Source: Scenedesmus sp. PABB004 (lineage: Eukaryota). Taken from it: a stretch of 51,601 nucleotides of DNA. Under the pieces are notes generated by a model. It searched no databases and was not told the DNA's origin. It saw only the letters and a list, made by a program, of their open reading frames with translations. Below, piece after piece: positions 8,275 to 50,000 of the stretch. The translations under genes and the position numbers were made by a program. The stretch is taken from positions 1,736,001 through 1,787,601 of the forward strand of contig JABVCE010000004.1 in the NCBI GenBank assembly GCA_014905635.1. The letters are read 5' to 3'. The first letter of the stretch is position 1. The number at the start of each line of letters is the position of its first letter.

Positions 8275-10853
8275 TCACGCCGCGCTCGGCGCGGGCGGCG
8301 GCAGCCAGCAGCAGATGCTGGTGCCCGTCTCGAGCTGGCCGCTGATCGCGTTGATGAAGCTGGTCGGGTAGGCCACGCTCAGGCGGCCGCCGATGCCCGC
8401 GAGCACCGAGCCGGCAAAGTCCAGGCTCACGAGGCTCGCCGAGGGCTTCAGGCTCGCCCCGCCGCCGGCCTCGTCGCGCGGCGCAAAGGCCCGCGACGTC
8501 GTATGCAGCCTCCCGGGCTGCACCTGGCCCGTGTGCAGCAGCTGCACCTCCACGCCGCCGCCGCTCTGCCGCGCCGATACGCAGAGCTGCCCCCCGCGGG
8601 GGCAGCACTGCAGCGCGACGTCCACGACGTGCCCCAGCACGCGCCGCGCGGTCGCCGCCGCGACGCCCACGAGCAGCGGGCGCACGGGCGGCGGCCGCAG
8701 CGCGACCGCGCCGCCGCCGTCGCCCGGCGCGGCGCCGCGCTGCTGCGCGGGCGGCGCGCCGCCGGCGGCGTCGAGCTGCAGCGGGTGGGAGACCACGAGG
8801 TTGACGCCCTGGGCGCGCGCCATGGCCGCCGCGGCGGTCAGCAGGTGCTGCAGCGCCTCGATCACGTTGCAGCTGCCGGCCGCGCCGCCGCCGCCGCCCG
8901 GCGCCGTCGGCAGCGCCTGCTGCCGGCGCTCGCGCCGGCTGGGCGCAGCCGGCGCGGCGGCGCCGGGCCCGTCGTCGCTGCCGCCGCCGCCGTCGCCGTC
9001 GCTGCTGCCGCTGCTTGACAGGCTCCAGCTGGGCGCCAGCACGGTGGCAGCGCTGCCCGCGCTGCCCGCGCTGCTGGCGCTGGAGCCCGCGGGCTCCAGG
9101 TCGATGGTGCGCGTGGCGTCGACGTCGCTGCCCGCCGCGTAAAAGGCCGTGCACGTCGCGGGCGTGGCGGCGCCGGGGGCGTCCGCCTGCACGCCGCTCC
9201 ATCGCACGTCACGCCTGCCCTGCTCCAGGCGCGCCGCTGTGCCCTGGCCGGGGAGGTGCACGACCACCGCCTGCTGCTGCTGCTGGTCGCCGCCCGGCGC
9301 GCTGGCGGCGTCGCCGGCGCCGGCAGCGCTCCCATCGCCGGCGCTGCTGCTGCTGCTGCTGCCGCTGCTGCCGCTGCTGCCGCTGCTGCTGACGCCGCTG
9401 ACGCTGCTGCGCTCGGGCAGCCCGCGCCGCGCGCCGGGCGGCGGCGGCAGCGCGCGCCGGCCGTCGCCGCGGGCGTCCGCGGCGCCCTCACGCAGCTCGT
9501 CCGCCGCCTCGCCCGCCCACGCCGCGCCGCCGCCCGCCACGGGCAGCGCGAGCTGCTGCCGCGCGCCGCCGGGGCCCGCCGCGGGGCGCAGCGCCGCCTC
9601 CAGCGCCGCCACGACCTCGGCGAGGCGCTGGCCCTGCAGCACCATGCCCTCGGCCATGTCGGGCTCGGGCTGGCCCGCGAGCTCGGCGCGCAGGCGCGGC
9701 GTGAGCATCTGGCCAAACGTGCCCAGCACCTTGAGCGGCCCGCGCGCCTGCACCAGCAGCGAGCGCGCGAGCCGGTCGCGCGCCTCGAGCTGCGCGCCCG
9801 CGAGCGCCGCGCGCAGGTCCATCGCGCAGCCCTTGGCCAGCGCCGGCACCGCGGTGCGCAGGCACCACAGCGCGTCGTCGGGCAGTCCCGCCGCCGCGTC
9901 GTCGTCGTCGCCGCCGCGCCGCGCCGCCGCGACGGGCGCCGCCTCGACGACGAGCAGGCCCACCAGCACGCCCGCCTCGGACAGCGGCAGCACGAGCAGG
10001 TTGGAGTTGGGGAGCACCACCACCTCCTCCTGGCACAGCGAGCTCTCGGTGTCGGCGCCCTCCCACGCGGGGCGGTGCAGGGTGAGCAGGTCGTCCAGCT
10101 CGTCGTAGCTGCTGCCGCCGTCGCCCGCCCACGCCCCCGGCGGCGGCGCGGCCGCGGCGCCGCCGGCGCCGGGCGCGGCGCCGCCGGCGCCGGGCGCGGC
10201 GCCGCCGGCCGACGCGCGCGGCGGCCAGCACGCGACGCGCTGGAGCCGGATGTGCGGCGAGCCCAGCGACTCGGCGCGGCGCGCATAGACGCACGCGCGC
10301 ACGCTGGCCGCGCTCGCGAGGCGCGACAGCACGGCAAACATCGCCCGCAGCTGCGCGCGCGCGAGCTCCCGCAGGTCGTGGCTCGGCTCAAACGCCTCCT
10401 CGTCGTCGAAGGCGTCATACACGAGCGCCTCGCCCGCCATCACCTCGCCTGCGCGGCAGCGGCGGCGCGCGCGCGGCGTGTGGGCGCGGCGCGGCGGCGC
10501 GGCGGCGGCGCGCGCAGGCCGAGGTCGCAGCTGTCGGAGCCTGGTTGCTCAGCGCCGGCTGGATGCCATTGCGCCCTCCCCGCGCGCGGGGCCGACCGCA
10601 TCGCCACGCAAGCGCGCCCCGGCGCACCTGCAGCGCCCGCTGCCACGGCGGTGAGGCGACCGACCCGCTGACGCGCCTCGCCCAGCGCCACGAGGAGCCG
10701 TGGCGCCGCGCCTGCGCCGCTGGGGACCGGGCCAGCGCGCCCGCGCATCGAGCGCGCGGGCGCGCGCCGCGGCTGGTCGTCGGGCATCGCCGCGACGCCA
10801 TGGCCAGGGCGCCGCGCGCGGCCGCGCAGCGACTGCCCCGGCGCCAGCAGCAT
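8275..10853 (-). CDS. CSK: Chloroplast sensor kinase (CSK/Hik2)-like modified histidine kinase: GAF-like + DHp + HATPase-like
   Basis: Exons 10853-10628 (transit-peptide-like, start uncertain) and 10448-8275, joined by a phase-1 GT-AG intron. EPSHDLRELARAQL, VYARRAES..RLQRVACWP, LLVLPLSEAGVLVGLLVVE, LAKGCAMDLR, LLVQARGPLKVLGTFGQML, DMAEGMVLQGQRL, CNVIEAL and GTSICCWLP are collinear with plant CSK segments as recalled. Confidence 0.8.
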
Positions 10854-11274
10854 CGCGACCCCCGCGCGCAATCAGGCGCGCATGGGGCTGCCGCACGCCC
10901 GGCGCTGGTGCGCAGCGGCAAAGTGGTGGTGTGCAGCGCGCGGGCACGCGGCGAGCGCGTTCGTTCGGGTAAGGCCTCGAGTGTCATGCGCTGCGCCCTC
11001 GGCCGCGAGAGACGCCCTTGCCCCGCACCGCCGCCCGTCGCGCCTCACAGGCCCGTTGCCGCGCTCGAGCCGCGCGCGCGAGAGCCGGGCCCCGGCTGCG
11101 GCCAGCGCGCCCGCGGCCCCCGCGCTGGGGCCGCCTTTCTTGGGCTCCAGCTGCGCCAGGACTGCAGTACAGGTCACCCAGGCCGTGAGTGGCCGCGCAG
11201 CAGCCGCAGGCGCCCCTGCTTGTCCGGGGGGCCGCATGCCTTCACTGTCCTCTTGCCCCTGAGCCAGCGCCAGC

Positions 11275-11918
11275 ATGGCGCCCCCCACCGTCGTGCTGGG
11301 CGGCGCCACGCCGGGCGTGGGCATCACCACGCTCGCGGCGGGCGTGGCGGCGGCGCTGAGGTGCGCAGCGGAGTCGCGCGGCGCCCGCTGTTTGCACGCC
11401 GCGCCGCCTCCCGCGCCCCCGAGCCCCTCCCGCCGCTCGCCCCGCAGGTCCCAGGGCCTGCGAGTGGCCAGCTTCGCCGTGGGACCAGGTGCGGCGGCGC
11501 GCGGCGGCCGCGGCGCCCGCGGCGCCACGAGCGGGCGCGGTGCCGCTGCTCACGCGCGCCGCGCCGCGCCCCTTGCGCGCGCGCGCGCGCGCGCAGGCCT
11601 GCCGGCGCGGCCGCCCCGGACCAGCAGTGGCGGCGGGAGCGGCGACGGCGCGGAGCAGCAGCAGGCGGGCCTGGACGGCTGGCTGCTGGGCGAGGACGGC
11701 GCGCGCGCGGCGCTCGCGGCGCTCGGCGGCGCGTCCGACCTCGCGCTCGTGGAGGGCTGCCGCGGCGTGCTCGACGGCCCCGCGGGCGACGGCAGCGAGC
11801 GGGGGAGCACGGCGGCCGTCGCGGGCGCGCTGGGCGCGCCGCTGGTCCTGCTCGTCGACGGCGCCGCGTTCCCGACGCCCCGCGGCGTCGCGGCGCTGCT
11901 CAAGGGCTTCTGCGCCGC

Positions 11919-11954
<36 letters not shown>

Positions 11955-14403
11955 GCCGGCGCTGCGCGTGAGTGGCGTCATCGTCAACCGCGCGCACAGC
12001 GCCGCGCCGTCGGCGCGCGGCGCGCTGGCAGACGCGCTCGCTGCGGCGGGGCTGGGCAGCGTGGAGGTGCTGGGCCTGCTGCCCAAGGTGCGGGGTGTGC
12101 CGGACCCGCGCCCTGCGCCGCGCCGCGCCCGCCAGTCGCTCACGCGCGCGCGCGCCCGCGCCGCAGCTCAACCAGCTCGCCGGCGAGCCCGGCGCGTGGA
12201 GCCCCGCGGAGCTGCAGGCGCTCGGCGCGCTGGTGGCGCAGCACGTGGACCTGCCGCGCCTGCGCGACGTCGCGGCGCGCGCGGACGTGCCGGCGCCGCG
12301 CGCGCCGCTGCCGCCCCCGGTGCGCACGTTCCGCGTGTCGCTGGGCGTCGCGCGGGACGCGGCGTTCTTCTCCTACTTCGCCCAGTGAGCGCCGCCCCAG
12401 CGCGCCGCCCACGCGCCGCGGCAGCTGCGGCGGGGCGGGCGCCGCGGCAGCTGCGGCGGGGGACGGGGCGCCGACACCCTCCCCCTGTGCCCGCCCCGCG
12501 CCCGCTCCGCGCCCGCGCAGGAATTTGCACATGCTCGCGGCCGCGGGCGTGCAGCTCGTGCCGTTCTCGCCGCTGCGCGACGCTGCGCTGCCGCCGGGGC
12601 TGTCGGGCGTGCTCCTGGGCGGCGGCGACGTCGTGGCGTGCGCGCCGCAGCTGGCGGCCAACACGCCCATGCTCGCGGCGCTGCGTGCGTTTGCGGGTGC
12701 CGGCGGCCTGGTGGTGGGCGAGGGCGCGGCGGTCATGTACCTGGCGCAGTCGGTGCAGCGCCCGGGGCAGCAGCAGCGCCACGACATGGGTGCGCGCCGG
12801 GCGGCGCGCCGCTGGCGGCAGCAGCCCAGCAGCGACGCAACGCGGCGCGACGAGCCGCGCCGCCGCGCCGGCGCGCCGCCGCCTCACTCGCCGCCGCCCG
12901 CCCGCCCGCCCGCCCGGCCGCAGTGGGCCTGCTCCCCTTCCACACGCAGGCGCTGTCCCAGGCCGGCGACGACGCGCAGCCCGGCTACGTGAGCGTCAGC
13001 GTGGCGGCCGACCCCCACCCGCTGCTGCTGCCCGGCAGCCAGCTGCGCGGCCTGGCGAGCTGCTGCTGCCAGGTGGTGGAGGAGCGGCTCGTGGGCGGCC
13101 TCTCCGCGGCGCTCGTGGCGGCGGGCGCACGGCAGCAGCAGCTGGCGGCGTGCGGCGACCCCGCCCGCGCGGGCCCAGCGGCGGCGGCGGCAACGGCGGC
13201 GCCGGGCGGCGCCGCGGCGGAGCCGCCGACCCAGGGCGGCAGCCCGCCGGCGCGCGGCGCGGCGGTGAGCTACAGCTACAGCTGCGTGCCGCTGGCGGCG
13301 CAGCCGGGCACGCCGGCGGTGGCAGAGGGCTACACGTGCGGCACGGCGCTGGCGAGCTGCGTGCAGCTCCACTACGGCAGCTGCCCGGAGCTGGTGCAGC
13401 ACATGGCGCAGCGCTGCCTGCGCGTGGACGTCGCGTCCGTGACGGCGGCCGCGAGCGCGGCGGCCACCGCGGCCGCCGCGGCGCTGCCGCGAGCGCCGCC
13501 GCTGGTGCTGCCGCCCAGCCCGCGCGGTGACGCGCCGCCGCAGCCAGGCGGCCTGCACTCGCCCGGCCAGGGCAGCCTGTCGGCGCCCGACCTGCAGCGC
13601 GTGCTGTGGCAGCAGCACGTGGCCGCGGCGGCGTGCGGCACGCCGTGCGTGGCCGGCAGCAGCCCCGGCTCGGACTCGTGGATGGCGACGGGCTGCGCGG
13701 GCCTGGCGGCCAGCCGGCAGCGCAGCGCGAGCATCCCGGCCAACATGTGGCAGCTGGGAGCGGCAGAGCAGTACGCGCACTACCAGCAGCACGTCGCGCT
13801 GCTCGCGGCGGCGCAGGGCGCCGCGGGCGCGCCCACGGCGATGCACGGCGCCGGCAGCTTCAGCGCCGCCGGCGCCGGCGGCGGCGCGCAGGCGCAGCAA
13901 GCGCACAGCGCGGGGCAGCACGGCTGGCACGGCCTGCCGCTGCACGTGCCCAAGCGCTGGAGCCTGGAGCTGCAGCGCCTCGGCAGCCTGACCAGCCAGC
14001 TGCTGCCGGGCGCGAAGAGCCCCACGGGCCAGTCGCAGGCGGGGCAGCACGGCGCCGGCCGCGGCGCGCCCGGGCACTCGCGCAGCACCAGCCTGGGCGT
14101 GGGCATGGGCCACCTGCCCGAGGAGGCGCCGCTGTCCGAGGACGCCATCCGCGTGCTCGACAGCAGCCTGCCCGCGCTGCTCGGGCGCACGCACCAGACC
14201 CACATCGGCCTGGCGGTGCCGCTGAGCGGCGCGGCGGCGGCGGCCGCCGCAGCCCACGCGAGCGGCGGCTCGTGCGGCGGCGCCGCGTTCGGCGCCTCGC
14301 CCGGCAGCACGGCGGTGCGGCCCGAGGGCGGCGGCATGTCGCGCAGCAGCAGCGTGCACGAGCAGATGTCGCAGCTCGCGGCCAGCCTGGCAGCGCACGA
14401 GGC

Positions 14404-14443
<40 letters not shown>

Positions 14444-15396
14444 TCGGCAGCGCCCTCGCTCGCCGACGACAGCACGGCGGCGCCGGCCACCACCACGCAG
14501 GCCTCCGAGTGCGAGCTCACGGCGTGCCTGGCGGTCGAGGCGCAGCTGGCGCCGCCGCAGCCGCAGCTGCTGCTGCGCGGGCTGCGGGGGCCCGACGGCG
14601 ACGGCCTGCCGCCGGCGGGGCCGCACCACCACTACCACACGCCGCGGCCGGCCGCGCCGCGGCTGTCGCTGGAGCAGCACAGCCAGCAGCAGCAGCAGCT
14701 CGCGTGCGCGGCGCGGCCGTCGTTCGACTCGGCCTTCCCGCCGGCGCTGGCGCGCATCCAGCAGCAGCTGGAGAGCGACGGCGGCGCGGGCGCCGCCGCG
14801 GCGCGGGAGGCGGCGCTGCGGGGCCTGCTGCCCGGCGGGCAGCACGGCAGCGCGGACAGCCTCCTCTTCAGCGCCGGCAGCGGCGGCAGCGGCGGCGGGC
14901 GCCCGCCGCACGGCGGCGGCCTGCCTAAGAGCGCGAGCAGCGGCAAGCTCAGCGTCGGCGGCGCGCCGCTCACGCCCGCGGCGCGGCACGGCCCCGGCGG
15001 GGCCATCATCAGCCTCTCGCCCGCCGCCACGGACTGCCTGGTCGCGCTGGGCCTCGCGGGGCGCCTCGCAGGCGTGACGGACGCGTGCAGCACGCAGCAG
15101 CTCAGCGCCGCGGCGGCCGGGCCCGGCACCCGCTTCGCGCCGCTGCTCGACGCGATCGGCGCGCCGTGGGCGGCGGAGGCCGCGGAGGAGGCGGCCGCGG
15201 CCGACGCGCGGCGCGGCGGCGCGCCCGTGGTGTGCCGGCTCGTGGACGGCCCCGACGGCCTGCCGCGCTACAAGCTCGACGAGGACGCCATCCGCGCCGC
15301 GCAGCCGGGGCTCGTGGTCGTGGCGTGCGAGGAGGGCGCGGACGAGCAGCCGCCGCAGCCGCACCAGCAGCTCGCGCGCGGCGGCAGCGGCGGCGG

Positions 15397-15429
<33 letters not shown>

Positions 15430-16309
15430 CGGCGTCGGCGCGTCGATGAACGGCGCGGTCGCGGTGCCGGGGCGGGTGCGGCTGGAGGTCGCGGTCGTGC
15501 AGCGCGTGCTGCAGCGCGCGGGCGTGCTGTGGCCGAGCGCGCGCGCCGCGGTGCTGTACCAGCGCTGCCACAGCCTGTCGGAGGTGCTCGAGTTCATCCT
15601 CGTCCTCGCCGCCGCCGCGGGCGCGCCGGCGCGCGGCCTCGCGCTCGTCGCAGGCCTGCGCGCGCGCCTGCGCGCCGCCGCGGCGCGGCTGTGCGCCGCG
15701 GGCGACGGCCCCGCGCGCCGCGCGAGCAGCAGCAGCAGCGGGAGCGCGAGCGGCAGCGGCACCGGCACCGGCAGCGCCAGCGGCAGCGCCAGCACCGTTG
15801 ACGCGGCGCCCGCGCGGCGCGCGCGCGCGCCGCGCGTGGTGGTGCTGGAGAGCGTGACGCCGCTGCGCCTGGCCGGCTTCTGGGTGCCTGAGCTGCTGGA
15901 CCTCGCCGGCGCGGAGCAGCCGAGCCTCGCGCCGGCCGCGGGCGAGCCGCCCGCGTGCGTCGCGTGGGCGGCGCTGCGCGGCGCGGCGCCCGACGTGCTC
16001 GTGCTCGCACTGTCGGGCCTCGACGCGGGCGCGGCGGCGCACCACACCGCCACGCTGGCGGGCCTGCCGGGCTTCTGGTCGCTGCCCGCGGTGCGCGCGG
16101 GCGCGGTGTACGTGGTCGACCACGCCCTGCTGCTGCGCCCGGGGCCGGGGCTCGTGCTCGGCCTGGAGCTGCTCGGCCACGTCGTCGCGCCGGAGCGCCA
16201 GGCGCCGCCCGCGGGGCTCGCGCTCGGCAGCGTGCTCAAGCTGGGCCTGCACGGCGGGCAGCGCTGCCGCCCGCGGCTCGTGCCGCACTACCTCGCGCGC
16301 TGCGTCTGA
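11275..16309 (+). CDS. Fusion protein: N-terminal cobyrinate a,c-diamide synthase (CbiA/CobB)-like region with degenerate active sites, long low-complexity linker, C-terminal BtuF/TroA-like substrate-binding domain
   Basis: Exons 11275-11360, 11448-11488, 11597-12087, 12167-12384, 12521-12789, 12924-16309, all joined by GT-AG introns with consistent phase. CbiA-like motifs: LDGWLL, DLALVEGCRGVLDG, GSTAAVAGALGAPLVLLVDG, GVIVNR, LGVARDAAFFSYFAQNL, PFSPLRD, LLGGG, MVGLLP. BtuF-like motifs: IISLSPAATDCLVALGLAGRLAGVT, AGFWVPELLDLAG, PDVLVL, LPAVRAGAVYVVD, RPGPGLVLGLELLG. Confidence 0.88.
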
Positions 16310-16840
16310 CCCTCGGAGGCGCCGGGAGGGGCGCGTGTGTCGCCAGCAGTCTAAGCAGTCTTAGCAGTCAGGCCCAGGCGGTGTGCGTGCGGAGGGACGG
16401 GTAGTGCCAGCGGCAGTGGACAGGCAGGCCTCAAGTGTGCAGACAGAGAGGGAGCGTGCGGCGCGTGGTCGCCGTGACGGGCGCTGGATCGCGCGAGCGC
16501 TGCGGGAGGTTTGATTCTGCGCGCCCGTCGATGATCACGGCACTCGGCATGGCATGTACATCACCAACTTCACGCGCCGCCGCACAGCGGCGCGCGTCAT
16601 CATGTCTCGAAACGAGGGTTGAAGGACGAGGGCAACTGTGGTGTCGTTCGCTGCGCCCCGCATGCGCCAACAGCCGTGCCTCCCCCGCACAGCCCGGAAC
16701 CGCGTGCGCACGGCAACAGAGCGGCGGCAGCAGCAGTGGCCGCAGCAGCAGCGCGCGCTTGCGACGCAGCCAGCGCGCGCCAGAGGGGCAGCCGCCGCGC
16801 CTGTGCTTCCGGCTGCGTCCCGTGCACACGATCAGGCAGC

Positions 16841-17870
16841 ATGCGGCGGGCGGTGAGCCGGCTGGGGGGCGCCCTGGGCGCGGCCATCACCTCGAGCGCC
16901 CCGGCCGGCAGCGCCGCGCTGGGCGGGCTGGGCGGCGCGCTGGGCCAGGTGCGGCGCTTCAACTTCATTCCCTACGTGATCGAGACCTCCAGCCGCGGCG
17001 AGCGGGCGTATGACATCTACTCGCGCCTGCTGAAGGAGCGCATCGTGTGCGTGAACGGCCCCATCGACGACGCCACCTCCAACGTCGTCGTCGCGCAGCT
17101 GCTCTACCTGGAGAGCCAGCACCCGGAGCAAAAGGCGCGCCGGCGGCGGCGCGGCGCGGCGCGGCGCGCGGCCGCGGCGCGCGTGTGCGTGCCGCAAGGC
17201 GACCGCCGCGCGCCGAGCACTGGCCGGGGCGCCGCGCAGGTCTCCATGTACATCAACTCCCCCGGCGGCGTGGTCACCGCGGGGCTGGCCATCTACGACA
17301 CCATGCAGTACGTGCGCTGCCCGATCAGCACGCTGTGCGTGGGCCAGGCGGCGAGCATGGCGTCGCTCCTGCTGGGGGCGGGCGAGCCGGGGGAGCGGCG
17401 CTGCCTGCCCAACGCGCGCATCATGGTCCACCAGCCCATCGGCGGCGCGCAGGCGCGGCGCGGCGGCGCGGGGGGCGCGGCGCGCGCAGTGCCTGCGCGC
17501 TGCGGCTCACGCGCCTGCGCCGCGCGCGCGCGCGCTCGCGCGGCAGGGCCAAGCCAGCGACATCCTGATCCAGGCCAAGGAGATTGAGCGCCTGCGCGAC
17601 CTGCTGGTACAGCTGTACGTGAAGCACGCGGGGCAGACGACCGAGGCCGTGGGTGAGCGTGGGGCCCCCGCGCCAGCCCGCACGCGGGGTCGCGGGCCGG
17701 CCGCCGCGCGCGAGTCCTGTCGCGCTGACCCTGCCGCGCCGCGCTGCGGTGCGCGCGCAGACAAGACGCTGGACCGCGACTGCTACATGAGCCCGACCGA
17801 CGCGCGGCGCTGGGGGCTGGTGGACCACGTCATCGAGCACCGCCCCCTCGAGACAGCGCGCTCGAGCTGA
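16841..17870 (+). CDS. clpP: ATP-dependent Clp protease proteolytic subunit, mitochondrial type (ClpP2-like), 4 exons
   Basis: Exons 16841-17134, 17240-17452, 17547-17652, 17761-17870. Motifs [58 protein letters not shown] (Ser), IMVHQP (His), DRDCYM (Asp). The N-terminus is Arg-rich and lacks acidic residues, like a presequence. Confidence 0.96.
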
Positions 17871-47089: not shown

Positions 47090-50000
47090 CGGCCGCTGGC
47101 GGCGGCCCTCGCCGGCGCAGCCCGTGGCCGGCCACGCAGCATGTTGGAGCCGCGCACCTCCGCTCCGCAGGGGCGGCGGGGCAGGGGAAACGGCGCACGG
47201 CAGCGCCGCGCCGCGGCGCCGGCGAGCGGCGCGCGCGCGGGCGGCGCGCGGCCCGCGGCGCAGCGCGGCCGCCGACGGCGGCCCTCGCCGGCGCAGCCCG
47301 TGGCCGGCCAGGCAGCATGTTGGAGCCGCGCACCTCCGCTCCGCAGGGGCGGCGGGGCAGGGGAAGCGGCGCACGGCAGCGCCGCGCCGCGGCGCCGGCG
47401 AGCGCGCGCGCGCGGGCGGCGCGCGGCCCACGGCGCAGCGCGGCCGCCGGCGGCGGCCCTCGCCGGCGCAGCCCGTGGCCGGGCAGCATGTTGGAGCCGC
47501 GCACCTCCGCTCCGCAGGGGCGGCGGGGCAGGGGAAGCGGCGCACGGCAGCGCCGCGCCCGCGGCGCCGGCGAGCGGCGGCGCGCGCGGCGGCGCGCGGC
47601 CCCGGCGCAGCGCGGCGGCCGCCGGCGGCGGCCCTCGCCGGCGCAGCCCGTGGCCGGCCACGCAGCAAGCTGGAGCCGCGCACCTCCGCTCCGCAGGGGC
47701 GGCGGGGCAGGGGAAATGGCGCACGGCAGCGCCGCGCCGCGGCGCCGGCGAGCGGGCGGCGCGCGGGCCGGCGCGGCCGCGGCGCGGCGCGGCCTCGGCG
47801 GCCGACTCGCGGCGCAGCCCGTGGCCGGGCAGCATGTTGGAGCCGCGCACCTCCGCTCCGCAGGGGCGGCGGGGCAGGGGAAATGGCGCACGGCAGCGCC
47901 GCGCCGCGACGCCGGCGAGCGGCGGCGCGCGCGGCGGCGCGCGGCCCGCGGCGCAGCGCGGCCGCCGGCGGCGGCCCTCGCCGGCGCAGCCCGTGGCCGG
48001 CCACGCAGCAAGCTGGAGCGCGGCACCTCCGCTCCGCAGGGCGGCGGGGCAGGGGAAATGGCGCACGGCAGCGCGCGCGCCGCGGCGCCGCCGAGCGGCG
48101 CGCGCGCGGGCGGCGCGCGGCCACGGCGCAGCGCGGCCGCCGGCGGCGGCCCTCGCCGGCGCAGCCCGTGGCCGGGCAGCATGTTGGAGCCGCGCACCTC
48201 CGCTCCGCAGGGGCGGCGGGGCAGGGGAAGCGGCGCACGGCAGCGCCGCGCCGCGACGCCGGCGAGCGGCGCGCGCGCGGGCGGCGCGCGGCCCGCGGCG
48301 CAGCGCGGCCGCCGGCGGCGGCCCTCGCCGGCGCAGCCCGTGGCCGGCCACGCAGCAAGCTGGAGCCGCGCACCTCCGCTCCGCAGGGGCGGCGGGCAGG
48401 GAAATGGCGCACGGCAGCGCCGCGCCGCGGCGCCGGCGAGCGGCGCGCGGCCCGCGGCGCGGCGCGGCCGCCGGCGGCCGACCTCGGCGGCGCAGCCCGT
48501 GGCGGGCAGCATGTTGGAGCCGCGCACCTCCGCTCCGCAGGGGCGGCGGGGCAGGGGAAATGGCGCACGGCAGCGCCGCGCCGCGACGCCGGCGAGCGGC
48601 GCGCGCGCGGGCGGCGCGCGGCCCGCGGCGCAGCGCGGCCGCCGGCGGCGGCCCTCGCCGGCGCAGCCCGTGGCCGGCCACGCAGCAAGCTGGAGCCGCG
48701 CACCTCCGCTCCGCAGGGGCGGCGGGGCAGGGGAAATGGCGCACGGCAGCGCGCGCGCGGCCGCGCCGAGCGGCGCGCGCCGCGGGCGGCGCGCGCGCCC
48801 ACGCAGCGCGCGCCGGCGGCGGCCCTCGCCGGCGCAGCCCGTGAGGGCATGTTGGGCGCGCACCTGCTCCGCAGGGGCGGGGCAGGGGAGCGGCGCACGG
48901 CAGCGCCGCGCGCGCGACGCCGGCGAGCGCCGCGCGGCGCGGGCGGCGCGCGCCCGCGGCGCAGCGCGGCCGCCGGCGGCGGCCCTCGCCGCGCAGCCCG
49001 TGGCCGCCGGCCACGCCGGCCACGCAGCAGCTGGAGCCGCGCACCTCCGCTCCGCAGGGGCGGCGGGGCAGGGGAAATGGCGCACGGCAGCGCCGCGCCG
49101 CGGCGCCGGCGAGCGGCGCGCGCCCGCGGCGCGGCGCGGCCGCCGCGGCCGACCTCGGCGGCGCAGCCCGTGGCCGGGCAGCATGTTGGAGCCGCGCACC
49201 TCCGCTCCGCAGGGGCGGCGGGGCAGGGGAAATGGCGCACGGCAGCGCCGCGCCGCGACGCCGGCGAGCGGCGCGCGCGCGGGCGGCGCGCGGCCCGCGG
49301 CGCAGCGCGGCCGCCGGCGGCGGCCCTCGCCGGCGCAGCCCGTGGCCGGCCACGCAGCAAGCTGGAGCCGCGCACCTCCGCTCCGCAGGGGCGGCGGGGC
49401 AGGGGAAATGGCGCACGGCAGCGCCGCGCCGCGGCGCCGCCGAGCGCGCGCGCGCGGCGGCGGCGCGCGGCCCGCGGCGCGGCGCGGCCGCCGGCGGCCG
49501 ACCTCTGCGGCGCAGCGCGTGGCCGGGCAGCCTGTTGGAGCCCCGCACGCCCGCTCCCCAGGGGCGGCGGGGCAGGGAAACGGCGCACGGCAGCGCTGCG
49601 CCGCGGCGCCGCCGAGCGGCGCGCGCGCGGGCGGCGCGCGGCCCGCGGCGCGGCGCGGCCGCCGGCGGCCGACCTCTGCGGCGCAGCGCGTGGCCGGGCA
49701 GCTGTTGGAGCCCCGCACGCCCGCTCCCCAGGGGCGGCGGGGCAGCGGAAACGGCGCACGGCAGCGCTGCGCCGCGGCGCCGCCGAGCGGCGCGCGGCCC
49801 GCGGCGCGGCGCGGCCGCCGGCGGCCGACCTCTGCGGCGCAGCGCGTGGCGGGCAGCCTGTTGGAGCCCCGCACGCCCGCTCCCCAGGGGCGGCGGGGCA
49901 GCGGAAACGGCGCACGGCAGCGCTGCGCCGGGCGGCCCGAGCGGCGCGCGCGCGCGGCGCGCGGCCCGCGGCGCGGCGCGGCCGCCGCGGCGGCCCTCGC

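Follow-up and report, generated by a model that had tools for sequence, protein, structure and literature searches.

A eukaryotic CobB–BtuF fusion in the green alga Scenedesmus sp. PABB004, with a CobB-like half predicted to be a pseudoenzyme

Introduction

The gene described here occupies positions 11275-16309 on the plus strand of a 51,601-nucleotide (nt) stretch of DNA from the green alga Scenedesmus sp. PABB004 (contig JABVCE010000004.1), hereafter the window, and encodes a protein in which a module related to the B12-biosynthesis enzyme CobB is followed by a domain resembling the B12-binding protein BtuF. Judged by its sequence, this protein is clearly a member of a eukaryotic CobB–BtuF fusion family, in the order CobB and then BtuF-like. 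Its CobB-like half appears to have given up catalysis, and we tentatively read the whole protein, with a confidence that stays a little short of even, as a non-catalytic cytosolic binder of a tetrapyrrole, most likely a corrinoid, or as a scaffold that would hand such a ligand over. Binding or scaffolding, beyond amidation, would be a selected function, because the whole clade to which the protein belongs has kept it after the catalytic residues were gone. The conservation that speaks for this reading comprises the intact frame of 1496 amino acids (aa), both modules, the C-terminal tail and the short motifs of the linker.

Outside animals, the intracellular handling of B12 and related tetrapyrroles after their uptake is poorly known in eukaryotes. 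In the fusion, a tetrapyrrole-type binding domain is joined to an enzyme module of 'B12 biosynthesis', the only such module that these eukaryotes were found to have, and the clade of the window, in which the protein was retained after the loss of its catalytic residues, represents a natural experiment in which orthologues that look active can be compared biochemically with matched dead ones. What is particular to this clade is the catalytically dead version, the architecture itself being already present in public databases across many eukaryotes and not peculiar to this alga. An earlier, sequence-only reading of the same DNA could not tell whether the architecture had been described before. 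No paper on a CobB–BtuF fusion, and no functional study of one, was found in a full-text literature search, with most subscription journals and supplements lying outside it; the fusion as such occurs in 62 of the collected proteins across eukaryotes. In the portions of the sources that were available, algal CobB-like transcripts are mentioned in passing (PMC4057078) and in a figure legend (10.1101/2020.07.01.177865).

Gene structure and integrity of the fusion

As assembled from the genomic sequence and its GT/AG borders, the gene consists of six exons on the plus strand, with GT..AG at all five introns, and a frame of 4491 nt that encodes 1496 aa and ends in TGA. The six-exon structure proposed from the sequence alone was reproduced, exon 6 to the letter (12924-16309), and the domain limits given there (~13420 for the end of the CbiA-like region, ~15005-16200 for the BtuF-like domain) agree with the envelopes obtained with hidden Markov models (HMMs), 11287-13426 and 15005-16210. 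The parts of the gene are as follows.

11275-11360, plus strand: exon 1, with the ATG, the first strand and the degenerate P-loop (GVGIT, 11314-11328) of the CobB-like module
11448-11488, plus strand: exon 2, the strand running into the PDYIDP position; GPGLPARPP spans the junction of exons 2 and 3
11597-12087, plus strand: exon 3, the synthetase (AAA_26/CbiA) core, retaining GLDGW and VEG..LDG; hit by NF002204 (59.8 bits) and Pfam AAA_26
12167-12384, plus strand: exon 4, the inter-domain segment and the first strand of GATase_3; NF002204 17.2 bits, E 0.0019
12521-12789, plus strand: exon 5, the GATase_3 core (31.7 bits), with the nucleophile position GEGAAVMYL at 12717-12743
12924-16309, plus strand: exon 6, the end of the CobB-like half, the linker, the BtuF-like domain, the tail and the stop
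12924-13426, plus strand: first part of exon 6, the C-terminal third of GATase_3, with GLASC (13046-13069) at the GHEFH position
11287-13426, plus strand: the CobB-like half as an HMM envelope, residues 5-536
13427-15004, plus strand: the linker, in the middle of exon 6, 526 aa, predicted to be disordered
15005-16210, plus strand: the BtuF/TroA-fold domain, residues 1063-1464, Peripla_BP_2-like, of two lobes with two low-complexity inserts
16211-16306, plus strand: the family-specific C-terminal tail, with GGQRCRPRLVP at 16253-16285; the TGA ends at 16309

Exon 6 holds the final 128 residues of the CobB-like half together with the entire BtuF-like domain, stop-free between them, and two relatives known as transcripts, P0007 (1499 aa, transcriptome assembly) and P0018 (MMETSP), cover both modules. 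On these two grounds the fusion is a genuine single polypeptide and a gene-joining artefact is rejected, as had been argued before from the shared exon. That the model wrongly merges two genes hardly deserves credit, even though the gene model of this alga is known from genomic sequence alone: both modules lie in one exon with no stop between them, relatives known as transcripts span both, and the trees of the two domains, described below, are congruent.

The match to the CobB HMM starts at residue 5, four residues after the protein start, with an in-frame stop codon 12 nt before the ATG, so that, barring a further exon upstream, an N-terminal signal or transit peptide would be absent from the protein as modelled; the earlier remark that none is evident stands.

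A fusion family spread across eukaryotes

Using two HMMs of our own, both modules were hit in 62 of the 291 sequences examined, namely 290 collected proteins plus the spliced protein of the window, which is among the 62. A HMMER search with the BtuF-like domain returned 1816 matches at E <=0.001, 23 of them at E <=1e-30, many being proteins of 900-1600 aa with the domain at their C-terminus; when 28 long representatives were scanned, 19 carried GATase_3 and Peripla_BP_2, two GATase_3 only and seven Peripla_BP_2 only. The members from green algae include Tetradesmus obliquus, Raphidocelis subcapitata, [Myrmecia] bisecta, Micractinium tetrahymenae, Prototheca wickerhamii and Tetraselmis, and others come from the haptophyte Pavlova lutheri, the mosses Physcomitrium patens and Ceratodon purpureus, the dinoflagellate Polarella glacialis and the oomycetes Aphanomyces and Saprolegnia. 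The GQRCRP tail of the family is replaced, in the oomycete and dinoflagellate forms, by C-terminal Kelch repeats and a Cys-rich DUF5522 domain (P0133, P0166-P0170, P0172, P0184-P0192).

The tree of the BtuF-like domain was built from the 62 fused proteins and the first 24 of 42 prokaryotic stand-alone proteins, and the fused proteins all fall on one side of a branch with support 99. In the tree of the CobB domain (FastTree, 155 rows), a clade with support 99 unites 53 fused proteins with three further rows, apart from 99 bacterial CobBs; the three extra rows are a partial protein and two CobB-only proteins, P0203 and P0209. The window is placed identically in both trees, with Tetradesmus, P0007 and P0009 (99 in both), the next branch adding Raphidocelis (99 in the BtuF-domain tree, 100 in the CobB-domain tree), and in the BtuF-domain tree it belongs to a clade of 13 rows with support 97. 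The sub-clade is of chlorophycean type, with Tetradesmus obliquus and Raphidocelis subcapitata as the nearest named relatives of the window. The eukprot entry SM000072S21159 groups with the mosses in both trees. The per-domain trees that had been proposed as a check are thus at hand, and in both of them the window nests within the fusion family. Since the two trees are congruent and the fused proteins form one clade in each, the simplest reading would be that the fusion arose once and was then inherited within eukaryotes.

Both CobB-only proteins, from Polychytrium aggregatum (P0203, a chytrid fungus) and from 'Astpho2' (P0209, a trebouxiophyte), sit inside the fused clade, and they may be truncated models or cases of secondary loss of the binding domain. 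An origin of the eukaryotic CobB module from DsrN-like enzymes of sulfate reducers, which stand high among the homologues retrieved, was also considered and is neither supported nor excluded, the CobB tree giving no specific bacterial sister.

Loss of the catalytic motifs in the CobB-like half

The window protein has full-length homology to the synthetase and GATase_3 domains of CobB/CbiA. Against a CobB HMM built from 18 named bacterial sequences, the spliced protein scores 189 bits over model positions 3-477, compared with 498-532 bits for intact members of the family. Exon 5 reaches the Pfam GATase_3 model (31.7 bits against a cut-off of 27), and exon 3 alone matches the NCBIfam CobB model NF002204 with E 2.2e-16 and 59.8 bits, exon 4 being weak; the cut-off of this curated equivalog model is 254 bits, and the window was scored as single exons (59.8 and 17.2 bits). 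The intact relatives P0044, P0096 and P0161 exceed that cut-off with 452, 393 and 369 bits, and the intact eukaryotic members stay under the cut-off of the related CfbB model (374 against 560 bits).

In the reference columns of the alignment, GxGKT and ECGG are found in all tabulated bacterial CobBs, GPDYIDP in nearly all and GHEFH in most, and the same columns read GVGIT, GPGLPAR, EGAA and GLASC in the window. The Walker-A Lys is replaced by Ile in the window and by Thr in Raphidocelis, and is kept (GVGKS) in the clade relatives P0011 and P0009. At the GPDYIDPxxH position the window reads GPGLPARPP, PDYIDP being replaced throughout its clade; the glutaminase Cys of ECGG has become Gly, and both histidines of GHEFH are gone. 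The GLDGW and VEG..LDG motifs, both in exon 3, are still present. As is general for Triad amidotransferases and P-loop ATPases, the Cys would be the glutaminase nucleophile and the Lys the ATP binder, and mutagenesis work on CbiA has reportedly found the PDYIDP-type motif to be catalytic or substrate-binding.

Across the family, 54 of the 62 fused proteins could be aligned at these columns, the other eight scoring too low, and the rows are cluster representatives and not independent events. The Walker-A column holds 36 K, one I (the window), one S and 16 gaps, and the nucleophile column 41 C, 10 G, two S and one A. Within the 13-row clade of the window, the nucleophile Cys is missing from all 10 members whose sequence reaches that column, the remaining three rows being N-terminally incomplete, whereas most members of the neighbouring clade with Prototheca and Micractinium in the BtuF-domain tree keep it, which argues for a loss that is old and clade-wide. 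Over 325-509 residues, the CobB-like half is 44-53% identical to those of the clade relatives.

As an observation apart, the glutaminase Cys is also gone outside this clade, in P0030, P0050, P0059, P0069, P0082 and P0122 (Tetraselmis, a moss-related pair and others), a pattern that suggests a repeatedly relaxed glutaminase function across the fusion family.

The CobB-type reaction uses ATP and glutamine for the amidation of the a and c acetates, according to the available part of PMC7242693. Because all four of these signatures, from the Walker-A Lys to the GHEFH histidines, are missing in the window, the CobB-like half is predicted to be a CobB-derived pseudoenzyme, not to be filed as an active CobB/CbiA. 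No amidation can be taken for granted in the window.

The CobB-like half might nevertheless still be an enzyme, either an ammonia-dependent amidoligase or a ligase of altered chemistry. Amidotransferases usually stay ammonia-active when the glutaminase Cys alone is lost, the match runs over the length of the fold (model positions 3-477), GLDGW and VEG..LDG are kept, and two clade relatives have GVGKS. We consider this improbable, however, given the Ile and Thr at the Walker-A Lys of the window and Raphidocelis, the replacement of PDYIDP across the clade and the low score (189 against 498-532 bits in intact members). A decaying relic with no selected function would fit the missing catalytic residues, the extreme composition and the long low-complexity inserts, but it is still less probable and would be a surprising outcome: the frame is uninterrupted over 4.5 kb with five canonical introns, at least eight members of the clade have conserved the two modules along with the tail and the motifs of the linker, and the loss of the Cys is common to the 13-row clade, so that the protein has persisted long after it.

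A BtuF/TroA-fold domain and a conserved tail

The C-terminal domain scores 171 bits against the HMM of its prokaryotic relatives and matches fused relatives at E 2e-153, and it is 54-61% identical to its counterparts in the clade (148-473 aligned residues). Both Pfam domains had been expected from the sequence-only reading. GATase_3 was found, as described, but the window's domain does not reach the cut-off of Peripla_BP_2 (PF01497; 18.8 bits against 27.5), which its relatives pass (for example, P0030 with 47.6 and P0069 with 65.2 bits).

AlphaFold2, using an alignment of 68 sequences, models this domain with a mean predicted local distance difference test (pLDDT) of 83.1 and a predicted template modelling score (pTM) of 0.82, its two low-complexity inserts aside. 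A Foldseek comparison of the model with the PDB gave 160 matches at E <=0.001, and all the listed ones are of class III or TroA type, with target-normalised template modelling (TM) scores of 0.68-0.78 for the leading matches. The leaders are BhuT (haem, E 3e-10), RhuT (haem) and a Veillonella binding protein, followed later by PhuT and ShuT (haem); BtuF from Vibrio cholerae ranks eighth (E 6e-9, target-normalised TM 0.72). A profile search of the PDB places this BtuF first (E 1.7e-28, 103 bits), ahead of an iron-binding protein (1e-26, 97 bits) and ShuT (5e-24, 88.5 bits). When the PDB was searched with single sequences (phmmer), P0011 had no match and the window domain hit low-complexity noise only. 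Both the profiles and the model place the domain in the B12/haem branch of the class III binding proteins. In HMM alignments to ShuT, HmuT and BtuF, no equivalent of a haem- or B12-ligand residue could be assigned, a family-specific insert lying there. Thus, of the two corrinoid-associated modules claimed earlier, the CobB/CbiA type of the one and the BtuF/TroA fold of the other are borne out, but corrinoid specificity is not, the fold being equally close to haem binders.

Contrary to secreted or periplasmic class III proteins, the BtuF-like domain is internal in a protein with no N-terminal signal. It is followed by a tail whose family consensus, LKLxLxxGQRCRP, is matched by GGQRCRPRLVP in the window; this GQRCRP tail is kept from Pavlova to the mosses to the window and is ordered in the AlphaFold2 model (pLDDT about 95).

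A linker with conserved islands

Between the two modules lies a linker rich in Ala, Gly, Ser and Gln, almost wholly below pLDDT 50 in the AlphaFold2 model of exon 6. Its 526 aa are predicted to be disordered, in accordance with the earlier description of a low-complexity linker of ~520 aa, except that this description missed the short conserved motifs inside it. No Pfam family was found in the linker at E <=0.01, and a search of the ESM Atlas gave no usable match. The conserved islands are the following.

13721-13738, plus strand: linker island 1, RSASIP; clade consensus R/K-S-A-S-I-P-x-N-M
13946-13987, plus strand: linker island 2, VPKRWSLELQRLGS
14114-14227, plus strand: linker island 3, LPEEAPLS...GRTHxTHIGLAVPLS; clade consensus LPEEAPLS...GRTHxxxIGLAxPL
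14351-14392, plus strand: linker island 4, SVHEQMSQLAASLA

In the clade alignments, SVHEQMSxLAASL is the fourth conserved linker motif, and the last part of the LPEEAPLS...GRTHxxxIGLAxPL island is conserved out to P0101, in the neighbouring sub-clade. Three of the islands coincide with short secondary-structure elements predicted by AlphaFold2, with short helices among them, the sole stretches of the linker with raised confidence. The conserved parts of the linker are 39-46% identical to those of the clade relatives.

The database model of Tetradesmus obliquus (P0011, OEZ86_000587), of 794 aa where relatives have 1400-1500 aa, is without the linker and parts of both flanking domains, and is probably a mis-spliced public prediction.

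Prokaryotic relatives of the binding domain

The nearest stand-alone relatives of the BtuF-like domain are prokaryotic proteins of ~300 aa, 26-37% identical to the domain of the window. They open at the first strand and would have no signal peptide, since positions 22-25 of the BtuF model align with their residues 2-7. They carry conserved HEC, LCxVC and PCG motifs, of which the window keeps the cysteines only partly, and two of them (P0065 and P0060) end in a tail that resembles the eukaryotic one. Eight loci (L001-L008) were inspected for their neighbours, with 43 of the 73 listed open reading frames (ORFs) scanned. These loci form a small and narrow sample, all being close relatives of P0151 alone, from metagenome-assembled genomes of Armatimonadota, Bathyarchaeota, Planctomycetales and others. 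An MFS transporter, a phosphoenolpyruvate carboxykinase and a phosphofructokinase recur in two to three of the eight, and one has an ABC-2 membrane protein 4 kb off.

This prokaryotic family (P0053-P0156; L001-L008), large, signal-peptide-less and with the cysteines of HEC, LCxVC and PCG, looks like a cytoplasmic family with a binding-protein fold, which possibly binds a metal or a cluster.

A possible binder or scaffold and its ligand

In the mechanism that we propose for the window protein, amidation would have been abandoned. The ligand would sit in the BtuF-like clamp, and a second surface, for docking either the ligand or a partner, would be offered by the dead CobB module. Regulated protein contacts may be mediated by the disordered linker through its short conserved motifs, of which one resembles a phospho-dependent 14-3-3 site. 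As to the ligand, a corrinoid is weakly favoured, because intact relatives pass the cut-off of CobB and not that of CfbB, and because the best profile match in the PDB is a B12 binder.

Several observations weigh against this proposal. The domain falls below the Peripla_BP_2 cut-off. The four best Foldseek entries are haem binders or a binder of unknown ligand, BtuF coming only at rank 8, below four entries of haem binders. The prokaryotic relatives start at the first strand and have no signal peptide, and neither a cob/cbi gene nor a FecCD-type permease was found beside them in any of the eight loci, among the ORFs scanned. The P-loop Lys of P0011 and P0009 and the retained acidic motif VEG..DG leave room for residual nucleotide binding in the clade. 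RSASIP (13721-13738; K/R-S-A-S-I-P in relatives) resembles the mode-1 14-3-3 or basophilic-kinase consensus, a lead only, which tells against leaning on the 14-3-3 step. Physcomitrium and Ceratodon retain the fusion with its Cys intact, and mosses are reported, in the available part of PMC11439496, to have lost B12-dependent metabolism. Finally, homologues of CobB act on other tetrapyrroles: as far as the accessible text goes, CfbB works on Ni-sirohydrochlorin in the F430 route (PMC7242693), and DsrN is linked to siro(haem)amide in the title of a reference in PMC3397948. Given the mosses, and given that the prokaryotic relatives have no cob genes nearby, B12 should not simply be presumed to be the ligand.

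Much of this would be accommodated by a non-corrinoid ligand, such as haem, a siroheme-type isobacteriochlorin, an iron chelate or a metal centre, with the protein serving the handling of endogenous tetrapyrroles or iron; intact members could then amidate sirohydrochlorin or siroheme, and those of the window's clade could be left with binding or chaperoning only. Besides the Foldseek ranking, the moss members, the eight loci and the breadth of the CobB family just cited, this alternative draws on the closeness of the PDB profile scores (103, 97 and 88.5 bits for BtuF, the iron-binding protein and ShuT), on the HEC, LCxVC and PCG motifs of the prokaryotic relatives, which would suit a metal or cluster site, and on the fused family, which retains the first Cys and has an additional one in its tail. 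We regard it as unlikely, if a serious candidate, since intact members pass the curated CobB model and fall under the CfbB cut-off, the eukaryotic clade stands apart from the one DsrC-fused marker in the CobB-domain tree, the protein of known structure that best matches the sequence profile is a B12 binder, and most of the listed taxa come from algal and protist groups known to use B12.

The non-catalytic binder or scaffold, preferably of a corrinoid, can be extended into a more speculative proposal, which we consider doubtful and well on the improbable side. The chlorophycean protein would be a dead-enzyme receptor derived from an ancestral corrinoid-amidating enzyme, a B12 sensor or chaperone, in which the CobB pocket and the BtuF-like clamp read corrinoid or tetrapyrrole status and a phospho-regulated linker relays it to partners, and in the wider family the intact fusion, as a cytosolic enzyme, would re-amidate or salvage incomplete corrinoids. 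If true, such an intracellular sensor or chaperone could underlie B12-responsive regulation in green algae, and in re-amidating or salvaging corrinoids the intact fusion would do what no eukaryotic enzyme is known to do.

Sequence context

The G+C content is 0.75-0.82 across the window in 2-kb steps, with 0.87 at 48001-50000 near its 3' end, and long stop-free frames are found in all six reading frames. As many as 62 ORFs of at least 60 aa overlap positions 10000-17500, including an antisense one of 1158 aa at 12884-16360. Since such a G+C content leaves long open frames everywhere, ORF length proves nothing for a gene, and ORF-based gene calls in the window are unreliable; the gene described here is supported by homology instead.

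Downstream, the next gene (16535-17870, plus strand) is spliced and encodes a ClpP protease, with matches to Pfam CLP_protease in two frames (E 9e-47 and 9e-13). Upstream, an open frame of 757 aa on the minus strand (8275-10548) matched no Pfam family at E <=0.01.

Comparison with known systems

The window protein shares with the CobB/CbiA a,c-diamide synthases the two-domain layout and the homology over model positions 3-477. It differs from them in lacking the Walker-A Lys, PDYIDP, the glutaminase Cys and the GHEFH histidines, and also in being fused to a binding domain and encoded by an intron-containing, eukaryotic gene. Eukaryotes are not expected to have the remaining B12-pathway steps.

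With BtuF from the BtuCDF importer, the C-terminal domain has in common the two-lobe fold of class III or TroA type, the V. cholerae protein being its best profile match. Contrary to BtuF, however, it is internal, cytosolic-looking and devoid of a signal peptide, has extra inserts and a conserved tail, and implies no BtuCD partner. The haem-binding proteins ShuT, PhuT, HmuT, BhuT and RhuT are the top Foldseek matches (E 3e-10 to 2e-8, target-normalised TM 0.71-0.78), even though they are only 13-19% identical to the window domain. The Tyr reported to be the haem ligand of ShuT falls before the family-specific insert in the profile alignment, and no equivalent residue can be named. The signal-peptide-less prokaryotic BtuF-like proteins (P0065, P0151; L001-L008) differ in not being fused to CobB.

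CBA1 is, in the available part of PMC10828217, a proposed B12 binder with structural similarity to BtuF, associated with the endoplasmic reticulum or membranes and involved in uptake; by this description it is set apart from the window protein, having no CobB module, and the CobB–BtuF fusion is not mentioned in that part of the paper. CfbB and DsrN belong to the same enzyme superfamily, and CobB-type enzymes are thus not restricted to corrins (PMC7242693 and PMC3397948, both as far as available). The intact eukaryotic members are distinguished from CfbB by their score (374 bits against the 560-bit cut-off) and from DsrN by not grouping with the DsrC-fused marker.

The closest comparison is with the fusion relatives themselves, such as Rsub_12472 from Raphidocelis, OEZ86_000587 from Tetradesmus, WJX72_001237 from [Myrmecia] bisecta, LOC112282540 from Physcomitrium and SDRG_01916 from Saprolegnia. 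They share the architecture and the tail with the window protein, and the difference lies in the catalytic Cys, which is present in 41 of the 54 alignable members of the family and not in the clade of the window.

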